This document shows positions 58,457 through 58,689 of a stretch of 64,000 nucleotides of DNA, one piece after another. The DNA comes from an uncultured Chloroflexia bacterium (GTDB taxonomy: Bacteria; Chloroflexota; Limnocylindria; Limnocylindrales; CSP1-4). The position numbers and the translations under genes are program-made. The stretch is from NCBI GenBank assembly GCA_963813335.1, contig CAWEYL010000001.1:1184001-1248000 (forward strand), written 5' to 3'. Positions within the stretch are counted from its first letter, which is position 1, and every line of letters starts with the position of its first letter. The notes beneath the pieces were generated by a model. The model was not told where the DNA came from. It saw only the letters and a list, made by a program, of their open reading frames with translations, and ran no database searches.

Positions 58457-58486
58457 TTGACGGGCGATGGTTGCGGCGCGCACTAT
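58457..58486 (+). promoter_or_regulatory. Sigma70-type promoter of the met leader
   Basis: TTGACG (58457-62), 18-nt spacer, CACTAT (58481-86). Confidence 0.5.
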
Positions 58487-58495
58487 CGGCCGGTC

Positions 58496-58561
58496 ATGAG
58501 CACCTTCGTCCGATCGAACATGTGTATGCGCAGGCGGCCCCGCCGAAAGGCATGGGTCTGA
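58496..58561 (+). CDS. Putative 21-aa attenuator leader peptide MSTFVRSNMCMRRRPRRKAWV
   Basis: sORF with consecutive ATG-TGT-ATG codons upstream of metY-metX, followed by an intrinsic terminator. Confidence 0.55.
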   Translation: MSTFVRSNMCMRRRPRRKAWV

Positions 58562-58617
58562 GATCCCGCGCACGTTCGACATGACGTAAGGAGCGGGACC
58601 ACAGAACCAGGTCCCGG

Positions 58618-58656
58618 GGCCGCGGACTCCATGCAGGAGCCGCGGTCTTTTTGTTT
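58618..58656 (+). terminator. Intrinsic terminator (attenuator) in the metY leader
   Basis: GGCCGCGG-A-CTCC [ATGCA] GGAG-CCGCGGTC stem followed by TTTTTGTTT. Confidence 0.85.
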
Positions 58657-58689
58657 GCCCGTGAACACCAAGGAGGCACCGAACCCGAC

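Follow-up and report, generated by a model that had tools for sequence, protein, structure and literature searches.

The metY leader and its layout

The stretch of DNA analysed here, called the window throughout, comprises 64,000 nucleotides (nt) from an uncultured Chloroflexia bacterium of the Limnocylindrales (GenBank assembly GCA_963813335.1, contig CAWEYL010000001.1, positions 1,184,001 to 1,248,000 of the forward strand), and it carries on its plus strand two adjacent methionine genes, metY and, by best match, metX. The 296-nt intergenic region between a divergent alcohol-dehydrogenase-like gene and metY holds the whole of a leader formed by a promoter-like element, a short open reading frame (ORF) with methionine codons, a pair of complementary strands and an intrinsic terminator (Table 1). 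Judged from the sequence and its relatives, this leader is probably a transcription attenuator operated by the ribosome, which would sense how much methionyl-tRNA and, in many relatives, also cysteinyl-tRNA is available.

All elements listed in the original prediction, which had preferred a Met/Cys leader-peptide attenuator, were found in their places when the sequence was read directly. The scores of metX lie under the curated cut-offs (500 for TIGR01392 and 331 for NF001209), and Abhydrolase_1 matches this gene too. Within the leader, counted from the first base of the second Met codon, the pairing strand begins 8 nt downstream, and TTTTGTTT lies directly 3' of the terminator stem-loop. A strict consensus scan of the 1-kb region flagged no promoter-like site anywhere and passed over both the promoter and the terminator of the leader, because CACTAT matches three of the six positions of the -10 consensus and the terminator stem is bulged; as the scan criteria exclude CACTAT and bulged stems, this silence is not counted against the features. 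The sole terminator-like site that the scan returned (58221-37) lies outside the leader and was set aside.

Table 1. Features of the metY leader and the genes that follow it, in window coordinates.
Feature	Position	Strand	Remarks
Promoter-like element	58457..58486	+	TTGACG 58457-62, 18-nt spacer, CACTAT 58481-86; 9 nt to ATG
Short ORF	58496..58561	+	21 codons and TGA (58559-61), would encode MSTFVRSNMCMRRRPRRKAWV; predicted to be near-leaderless; 128 nt before metY
Sensor codons ATG-TGT-ATG (Met-Cys-Met)	58520..58528	+	Both ATGs invariant in 8/8 metY leaders
Antiterminator 5' strand GGCGGCCCCG	58533..58542	+	Inside short ORF; pairing part GCGGCCCCG at 58534-42
TGGGTC, 3' strand of local hairpin with antiterminator strand	58553..58558	+	Adjoins stop codon; RNAalifold consensus
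Post-stop region pairing back onto 58503-31 (Met codons and 5' part of ORF)	58568..58592	+	Candidate anti-antiterminator clamp; minimum-free-energy folds
Hairpin CGGGACC...GGUCCCG	58594..58616	+	Just before and overlapping terminator 5' arm
Antiterminator 3' strand CGGGGCCGC	58615..58623	+	Doubles as base of terminator 5' arm
Intrinsic terminator	58617..58656	+	Bulged G+C-rich stem-loop 58617-48, dG -23.6 kcal/mol; T-run 58649-56
metY Shine-Dalgarno AAGGAGG	58671..58677	+	Outside terminator hairpin; 15 nt past T-run
metY (O-acetylhomoserine sulfhydrylase / homocysteine synthase family)	58690..60027	+	PF01053 E = 1.2e-142; TIGR01326 672 bits against a cut-off of 495
metX (homoserine O-acetyltransferase), by best match	60027..61079, start approximate	+	TIGR01392 289.8 bits (E = 2.8e-86); NF001209 286 bits

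Conservation of the leader among relatives

Relatives were drawn from a genome scan with MetY, in which at least 597 metY loci matched and the best 80 were taken, so that the distribution of the element given here is a lower bound. The same leader is present in seven of these 80 loci (L001 to L006 and L075), whose MetY proteins are 74-93% identical to that of the window and which belong to metagenome-assembled genomes labelled Chloroflexia or Candidatus Limnocylindrales/Limnocylindria. It is this conservation in relatives that raises the observation above chance. All eight leaders (the window and its seven relatives) keep the ORF with its Met codons, the antiterminator strand and the terminator, which supports the leader-peptide attenuator preferred at the outset. 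The sensor had originally been read as Met-Cys-Met; its outer codons are conserved and the middle one is not: both ATGs of the motif ATG-NNN-ATG are invariant in 8/8 leaders, and the codon between them is TGT in four, TCC in two, GGC in one and GCC in one. Exactly 4 nt after the motif stands GGCGGCCCCG, invariant in 8/8, and its partner CGGGGCCGC is likewise kept in the eight leaders, with a variant CGGGGCUGC in L001 that gives one G-U pair. The terminator shows compensatory changes at three stem pairs. The hairpin that precedes and overlaps its 5' arm has one pair with a compensatory change among the eight leaders and is absent in L075. The local hairpin GGCCCC:GGGGUC has five pairs in the window and six in six relatives and is broken in L075; the window and L075 also depart from the other leaders between the antiterminator strand and the stop codon.

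Between the terminator and metY, L001 to L006 carry a further conserved block (CUCCGRA ... ACGGGNAGCCGCC) about 5-45 nt after the terminator T-run, followed by another 95-180 nt before metY. This block is partly complementary to GGCGGC...CCCG. The window is without most of it, and 41 nt separate its terminator stem from metY.

Reading frame, start and codon content of the short ORF

The Met codons lie in an in-frame ORF that opens with ATG or GTG in 8/8 leaders and that ends at the same aligned position in seven of them, being four codons longer in L002. Between 8 and 27 codons precede the Met codons, so the N-terminal length varies while the frame is kept. In alignments of the subgroups, the indels inside the ORF measure 3, 3, 6 and 15 nt, all multiples of three, and indels of 1-2 nt occur outside the ORF only. 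Across the Limnocylindria-type leaders a hexamer pair similar to that of the window stands at the matching place: the short ORF starts 6-9 nt after a -10-like hexamer. In six of the eight metY leaders and in both of the leaders found before dapB that are described below (8/10), the hexamer has a -35-like partner 17-18 nt upstream and the distance is 9 nt. A spacing of 9 nt implies a predicted 5' untranslated region of about 0-2 nt and hence a leaderless-like start.

The density of sensor codons differs from leader to leader. The window has two Met codons and one Cys codon among 20 non-start codons, and its relatives have up to four Met and three Cys codons. The upper end is the run MHCAMCPCMGM of L002, whose four Met and three Cys codons share a frame; the runs of L003, L005 and L006 are MMSM or MMAM, and three of the eight leaders are without any Cys codon. 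A search with the short-ORF peptide of L005 returned four metagenome proteins that share the ending SMMSMP(W/G)RPRSAEDGV. They bear out the motif; as they are found only where the frame is open, they are not independent evidence of translation.

Antiterminator pairing, terminator and folding

The strand GCGGCCCCG, inside the short ORF, is the exact reverse complement of CGGGGCCGC, with nine G-C or C-G pairs, and the resulting antiterminator helix and the terminator are mutually exclusive. When the eight metY leaders were aligned with the two dapB leaders, 92.2% of the 90 cells of this helix paired, versus 40-54% when the partner was slid by 1-3 columns, and its covariation score was reached by 7 of 500 shuffles. 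Five of the seven unpaired cells belong to L075, which is misaligned in this alignment and has a 9-bp complement of its own. The leader of the window as a whole folds with z = -2.86, and one of 200 shuffles folded as well.

A competing fold had also been proposed, in which three helices bulge out the Met-Cys-Met codons and the antiterminator strand is held in a GAAA-capped hairpin. The pairs TGCGC 58527-31/GCGCA 58568-72, TCGAAC 58514-19/GTTCGA 58574-79 and GTCATG 58493-98/CATGAC 58580-85 are indeed there, and the minimum-free-energy fold contains both them and the GAAA-capped hairpin. Across relatives the proposal survives in part: the fold is specific to the subgroup of the window, and only the TGCGC/GCGCA pair and the strand-holding hairpin recur in L001 and L004.

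The response to a ribosome was predicted by footprint folding, in which the transcript is cut after the 5' arm of the terminator and a ribosome footprint is imposed. Imposed at the second Met codon, the footprint increased the predicted antiterminator probability by more than 0.1 in five of the eight leaders, a weak point in favour of attenuation.

A codon-swapped copy of the leader before dapB

A covariance model built from the eight leaders, R1, was run against the window and the full set of 80 loci (533,947 nt). Second copies were found in L005 (5658-5805, 37.7 bits) and in L006 (5708-5855, 35.7 bits), both upstream of dapB, a gene of the lysine pathway identified by DapB_N, DapB_C and TIGR00036. 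With their promoter-like hexamers and terminator, these leaders extend over L005:5637-5805 and L006:5687-5855; the hexamers are their own, and the start codon lies 9 nt after the -10 hexamer. Their short ORFs encode MFVRMLAKPKSKRWRPCREARP and MFIQTHAWPKSKRWRPCREARP, with K-P-K-S-K in L005 and K-S-K in L006. In the model-based alignment, the columns that hold ATG-NNN-ATG before metY hold AAA-TCG-AAG or AAG-TCG-AAG before dapB, and the codons CGC TGG CGG CCC come next, as in L001 and L004. The antiterminator strand GCGGCCCU and the terminator arm AGGGCCGC differ from their metY counterparts by a compensatory change of C-G to U-A, present in both copies. Rfam scans gave no lysine-riboswitch match in these loci. 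On sequence grounds, the dapB copy is a candidate lysine attenuator. A further R1 match in the window itself (588-707, 9.2 bits, E = 1.7) has no short ORF with a terminator and was dismissed.

Leaders of Acidobacteriota metY genes

Weak matches of R1 lie just upstream of metY in Acidobacteriota and have no more in common with the model than ATG-TGT-ATG and a terminator. Short ORFs with Met/Cys runs are found at 12 Acidobacteriota metY loci (L015, L017, L019, L021, L024, L025, L027, L031, L032, L038, L043 and L068). They comprise 28-34 codons with runs such as MAMCM, MAMCMCM, MCMCM, MVMCMCM and MAMCMAMAMCC, and all 12 interleave Cys with Met. Nine of these ORFs begin 6-7 nt past a hexamer that resembles GATACT or TATACT and has a TTGACA-like partner, and the ORFs are probably leaderless. 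A terminator follows 16-32 nt past the stop codon in 11 loci, all of them clean calls of the terminator script apart from trimming in L068; the script gave a poor hairpin for L015, and nothing for L002 among the Limnocylindria-type leaders, and in both cases the hairpin used for pairing and folding was chosen by eye. In a blind scan for clusters, defined as at least four Met or Cys codons in seven with at least two of them Met, 14 clusters were found in 35,960 nt upstream of metY versus 30 in 904,414 nt of background, an enrichment of about 12-fold.

In each of the 12 leaders a strand complementary to the terminator 5' arm comes after the run. In 10 of them the ORF strand that pairs best with this arm starts 6-10 nt downstream of the first base of the run's final Met codon; in L017 and L024 it follows intervening Cys codons. 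In the window, duplexfold extends the reported pairing segment further 5'. The terminator arms differ between Acidobacteriota subfamilies (GGCCCGGGUCC, CGACCCACGG, GGCUCACGG and GGCCCACGG), and the ORF segment changes to match. In the candidate sequestering structure of these leaders, N-terminal codons pair with C-terminal codons, among them UCCGUG, which belongs to the antiterminator strand as well; this gives a trp-like layout with four segments, and five pairs show compensatory changes.

Some related observations are recorded here in their own right. Eight of the Acidobacteriota ORFs (L017, L019, L021, L024, L027, L031, L038 and L068) end in a conserved xMR-stop, mostly RMR, written ATG CGC TAG (TGA in L031), which sets an extra Met codon beside the stop. 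L022 carries a further Met/Cys-run ORF with a terminator 1.5 kb upstream of metY. A metY leader of the Gemmatimonadales (L011:2312-2413) has a Met/Cys-rich ORF (MSCRRAMCCRMIPCS...) followed by a G+C-rich hairpin and a weak T-run; the script found neither a clear terminator nor a clear promoter there, and the leader was excluded from the counts. It is a possible third lineage with the Met/Cys-run design.

Known RNA families at the same position

The original prediction had expected the leader to match neither a S-adenosylmethionine (SAM) riboswitch nor a T-box, and the Rfam scans bore this out. At gathering thresholds the window gave two matches, a thiamine pyrophosphate (TPP) riboswitch and a tRNA, neither of them in the leader. 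A permissive scan (E <= 10) of 58380-58720 gave four matches (BcKCsr2, mir-278, Xoo2 and Six3os1), no SAM class (SAM-I, I/IV, II, III, IV, V, VI or SAM/SAH) and no T-box among them; all had E >= 0.11 and were dismissed, and those to BcKCsr2 and Xoo2 fall mostly on the terminator hairpin and T-run.

The scans also covered all 80 metY loci. A SAM-I riboswitch (RF00162) lies directly upstream of metY in nine of them, including the Chloroflexales loci L007 and L008, and farther upstream on the same strand in five; a T-box (RF00230) was detected in one, L023. The Limnocylindria-type loci and the Acidobacteriota loci with Met/Cys runs had no Rfam match among the 80 scanned. Since SAM-I occupies the same slot in the more distant Chloroflexales, the leader of the window sits where an element responsive to methionine or SAM is expected. 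As a separate observation, L012 (Evansella halocellulosilytica) carries three SAM-I riboswitches on one strand within 2.1 kb upstream of metY (336-2382).

Proposed mechanism and points that weigh against it

The sequence and its relatives show the parts of the leader and how far these are conserved, that antiterminator and terminator exclude each other, and that the sensor codons fit the pathway; regulation by the leader is what we infer from this. In the mechanism proposed, transcription would start 0-2 nt before the ATG at 58496, and the 21-codon ORF would be read as a leaderless or near-leaderless message. When methionine is scarce, the ribosome would wait at the Met-Cys-Met codons. Base pairing of messenger RNA becomes possible again some 11 nt 3' of the first base in the P site. 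A ribosome whose A site holds the second Met codon would have its front edge at about the first base of GCGGCCCCG, leaving this strand exposed while holding the RNA 5' of it. The exposed strand would capture CGGGGCCGC on its emergence, the base of the terminator stem would be lost, and transcription would read through into metY-metX. When methionine is plentiful, the ribosome would reach the TGA and depart, and the free leader would lock the strand in the local hairpin with TGGGTC, extended by the pairing between the Met-codon region and the post-stop region; the terminator would then form and transcription would stop. That the short ORF is translated, which way the response goes and which structure acts as anti-antiterminator are likewise points that we infer.

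Several observations weigh against this interpretation. Some concern the ORF as a sensor. The sensor of the window contains just two Met codons, separated by another codon. There is no excess of third-position substitutions in the short ORF in either subgroup, the variable sites at codon positions 1, 2 and 3 numbering 10, 5 and 6 in L003, L005 and L006 and 8, 6 and 7 in the window, L001 and L004; the peptide is apparently without detectable purifying selection, which is expected for a leader peptide and is no positive evidence of translation. Methionine starvation also limits initiator tRNA and could in this way blunt the sensor. Others concern the antiterminator helix, whose strands are invariant in the eight metY leaders, so that its covariation comes from one pair in two closely related dapB leaders. 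In the window, whose RNA is rich in G+C, the 9-bp complementarity taken by itself does not exceed chance, as an equally or more stable duplex arose in 24 of 200 shuffles of the upstream RNA, and the duplex energies were not significant against shuffles in most sequences.

The folding predictions are also uneven. A ribosome placed at the stop codon gave an antiterminator probability that was comparable or higher in most leaders; in the window the values were 0.70 versus 0.83 when the stop-codon ribosome and the stalled state were compared. Since the stop-codon ribosome often favoured antitermination no less than the stalled one, thermodynamics cannot by itself account for the outcome, and kinetics must play a part. 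L002 and L075 were unresponsive to the footprint and L006 showed a decrease, and a cruder folding measure applied to 22 leaders gave 7 up, 7 down and 8 unchanged. Finally, the candidate anti-antiterminator differs between the subgroups: the window, L001 and L004 form one long hairpin that runs from the UG of the second Met codon, via the pairing of the strand with GGGGUC, on to GCGCA after the stop codon, and in L003, L005 and L006 codons 2-9 of the ORF pair directly with GGCGGC...GAAG.

Alternative explanations

An attenuator read by the ribosome is favoured over a riboswitch because of the codon swap before dapB, the unrelated Met/Cys ORFs of Acidobacteriota and the presence of SAM-I in the same slot. 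The riboswitch would be an undescribed one, binding SAM, S-adenosylhomocysteine or methionine and making the same choice between terminator and antiterminator, with the short ORF as an incidental feature of G+C-rich DNA, in which few stop codons occur. Open frames do arise commonly by chance (in L004 the same frame is open for 460 codons upstream), the lack of third-position excess fits this explanation, the most conserved bases, including the third codon positions in xGG CGG CCC CGx, are kept at the RNA level, and SAM-I stands at the same position in more distant relatives. Yet the leader resembles no SAM class or T-box even at E <= 10, and a ligand pocket is not expected to change as the dapB scaffold does, by exchanging Met for Lys codons. 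Also against a riboswitch are the indels inside the ORF, all multiples of three, the differences of the window and L075 from the antiterminator strand to the stop codon, and the Acidobacteriota leaders, unrelated save for Met/Cys runs, always in one frame, with a start near a -10 box and a terminator. A riboswitch is very unlikely. The weakest candidate of those considered is a factor acting in trans, whether an RNA-binding protein or, in the manner of a T-box, a tRNA, that would bind the invariant GGCGGCCCCG region and set the choice between terminator and antiterminator. The region is indeed invariant in the eight metY leaders and nearly so in the dapB leaders, as expected of a common site for a protein, but its double pairing, with the terminator arm and in the local hairpin, explains this; besides the missing T-box match, one factor shared by metY and dapB leaders would give no pathway specificity, which the codon swap does.

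Two further explanations accept the ORF and differ in what it does, and of all the rivals a general one has the best, if still poor, chance. According to this, the leader would be a translation-coupled attenuator that responds to overall translation capacity or to the coupling of transcription and translation, or else the ORF would encode a small protein with a function of its own. The sparse sensor of the window, with just two Met codons and one Cys codon, would suit such a role, and so would the tail RPR(R/S)AEDGV, well conserved in six of the eight leaders and in the four metagenome proteins, and the share of synonymous changes between L005 and L006 (5/8 differing codons). The tail, however, overlaps the antiterminator strand and hairpin, which explains its conservation, and it varies in the window (KAWV) and in L075 (LEVSA), whereas the ATGs are invariant. 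Sensor codons that follow the pathway (Met before metY, Lys before dapB) and the enrichment of Met/Cys clusters upstream of metY also argue against a general role. A similarly improbable reading, ranked between the general role and the riboswitch, makes the supply of cysteine or of sulfur in general the main signal, akin to the Cys-responsive leaderless short ORFs of mycobacteria. It draws on the Cys codon between the Met codons of the window, on the three Cys codons of L002 and the mixed runs of all 12 Acidobacteriota leaders, and on the placing of MetY in an O-acetylhomoserine / O-acetylserine sulfhydrylase family (TIGR01326). Cys is, though, replaced by Ser, Ala or Gly in four of the eight leaders (L002 keeps Cys elsewhere in its run) and by Ser in all four metagenome peptides, while the Met codons are invariant. 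Where both codons occur, a combined response to methionine and cysteine fits the methionine attenuator preferred here.

Neighbouring genes in the window

Upstream of the leader, on the minus strand (56778-58434), the divergent gene resembles a zinc-type alcohol dehydrogenase / quinone oxidoreductase and seems split over two frames: the ADH_N match lies in frame 57556-58434, and ADH_zinc_N in frame 56778-58127, with 25.8 bits against a cut-off of 31.8. This split suggests a frameshift, a sequencing error or a pseudogene. The TPP riboswitch of the window is also on the minus strand (55138-55244, 67.4 bits). Directly after metX, on the plus strand (61246-63998), follows an extracytoplasmic function (ECF)-type sigma factor (Sigma70_r2 and r4_2), overlapped by a long open frame (61413-63998) with an anti-sigma zf-HC2 motif and Big_5 and MG2-like domains, which continues past the end of the window.

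Wider implications

The combined findings allow a broader proposal, which is put forward tentatively and with somewhat less than even confidence. Limnocylindria-like Chloroflexota would use one portable near-leaderless cassette, formed by promoter, short ORF, fixed antiterminator strand and terminator, and would direct it to another pathway by swapping two or three codons of the sensor (Met in the case of metY-metX, Lys in that of dapB); in this lineage the cassette would thereby stand in for SAM and lysine riboswitches. Acidobacteriota would have reached the Met/Cys solution independently. If true, codon sensors read by the ribosome would be a widespread and unnoticed alternative to methionine riboswitches in uncultured soil phyla. 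If the attenuator itself is confirmed, methionine and, through the dapB copy, lysine would join the amino acids sensed by ribosome stalling, and such a sensor would be workable although methionine is the initiator amino acid. The metY and dapB leaders would then offer a natural codon-swap pair for testing the specificity of attenuators, and the leader would make it easier to annotate regulatory elements in Chloroflexota and Acidobacteriota, two phyla whose members are known almost entirely from metagenomes. The principle is classical; attenuation by Met and Lys codons on a re-usable leaderless cassette in two uncultured soil phyla would be noteworthy to specialists.

Comparison with known regulatory systems

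Methionine synthesis is controlled by SAM riboswitches, T-boxes and repressors such as MetJ and McbR, and the textbook examples of attenuation concern Trp, His, Leu, Thr, Phe and Ile/Val. The full-text literature, with subscription journals outside its coverage, gave no Met leader-peptide attenuator with a terminator and antiterminator and no lysine one before dapB. In Actinobacteria, a 2005 survey reported no RNA element for the genes of methionine (PMC1262725).

The leader resembles the classical leader-peptide attenuators of amino-acid operons (trp, his, leu, thr, phe, ilv), whose general scheme is outlined in PMC1262725 and PMC8079986. Both have a short ORF in which codons for the product of the pathway are frequent, an intrinsic terminator ahead of the first gene, an antiterminator that excludes it and a stalled ribosome as the proposed sensor. 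Four of six hallmarks of a classical attenuator are present here: the leader ORF, enrichment of the cognate codons, the intrinsic terminator and the exclusive antiterminator. The differences are that methionine, with or without cysteine, would be sensed, that the ORF lies at or near the 5' end of the predicted transcript whereas theirs stands behind a Shine-Dalgarno sequence, and that the ORF itself contains the antiterminator strand, which begins only 8 nt from the first base of the last sensor codon; in the Escherichia coli trp leader the distance from sensor codon to antiterminator is much longer. The four-segment layout, with its 1:2, 2:3 and 3:4 pairings, is clear in the Acidobacteriota version and not clean in the window.

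In mycobacteria, leaderless polycysteine short ORFs are described as relieving the repression of biosynthetic genes by ribosome pausing, with several operons possibly responding together (10.1101/834739). The single locus detailed there acts on translation, by unmasking a ribosome-binding site, and the ORFs of this kind need at least two consecutive Cys codons (10.1101/834739). The two systems share a short ORF placed first, leaderless there and predicted to be near-leaderless here, and codons for sulfur amino acids as sensor. They differ in that here the output would be an intrinsic terminator, the Shine-Dalgarno sequence of metY lying outside the hairpin, and in that the invariant codons are Met with Cys optional, the window having a single Cys codon.

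The closest prior methionine item is metL of Streptomyces lividans TK24, a predicted leaderless peptide of 29 amino acids that ends in RCMCRRMCAF and lies upstream of metNIQ (PMC8079986). It resembles the short ORF of the window, predicted to be near-leaderless, in its interleaved Met and Cys codons and in the methionine-dependent role proposed for it, and it differs in preceding a methionine importer instead of biosynthetic genes (PMC8079986). Its authors found no typical Rho-independent terminator and called termination unclear, and their passages on metL mention no comparative support, antiterminator or related leaders (PMC8079986). The SAM-I (S-box) riboswitch RF00162, lastly, shares with the leader its position before metY and, as proposed for the leader, controls an intrinsic terminator; it senses SAM directly through an aptamer, whereas the leader of the window, which matches no SAM class, would read the supply of methionyl-tRNA through the ribosome.

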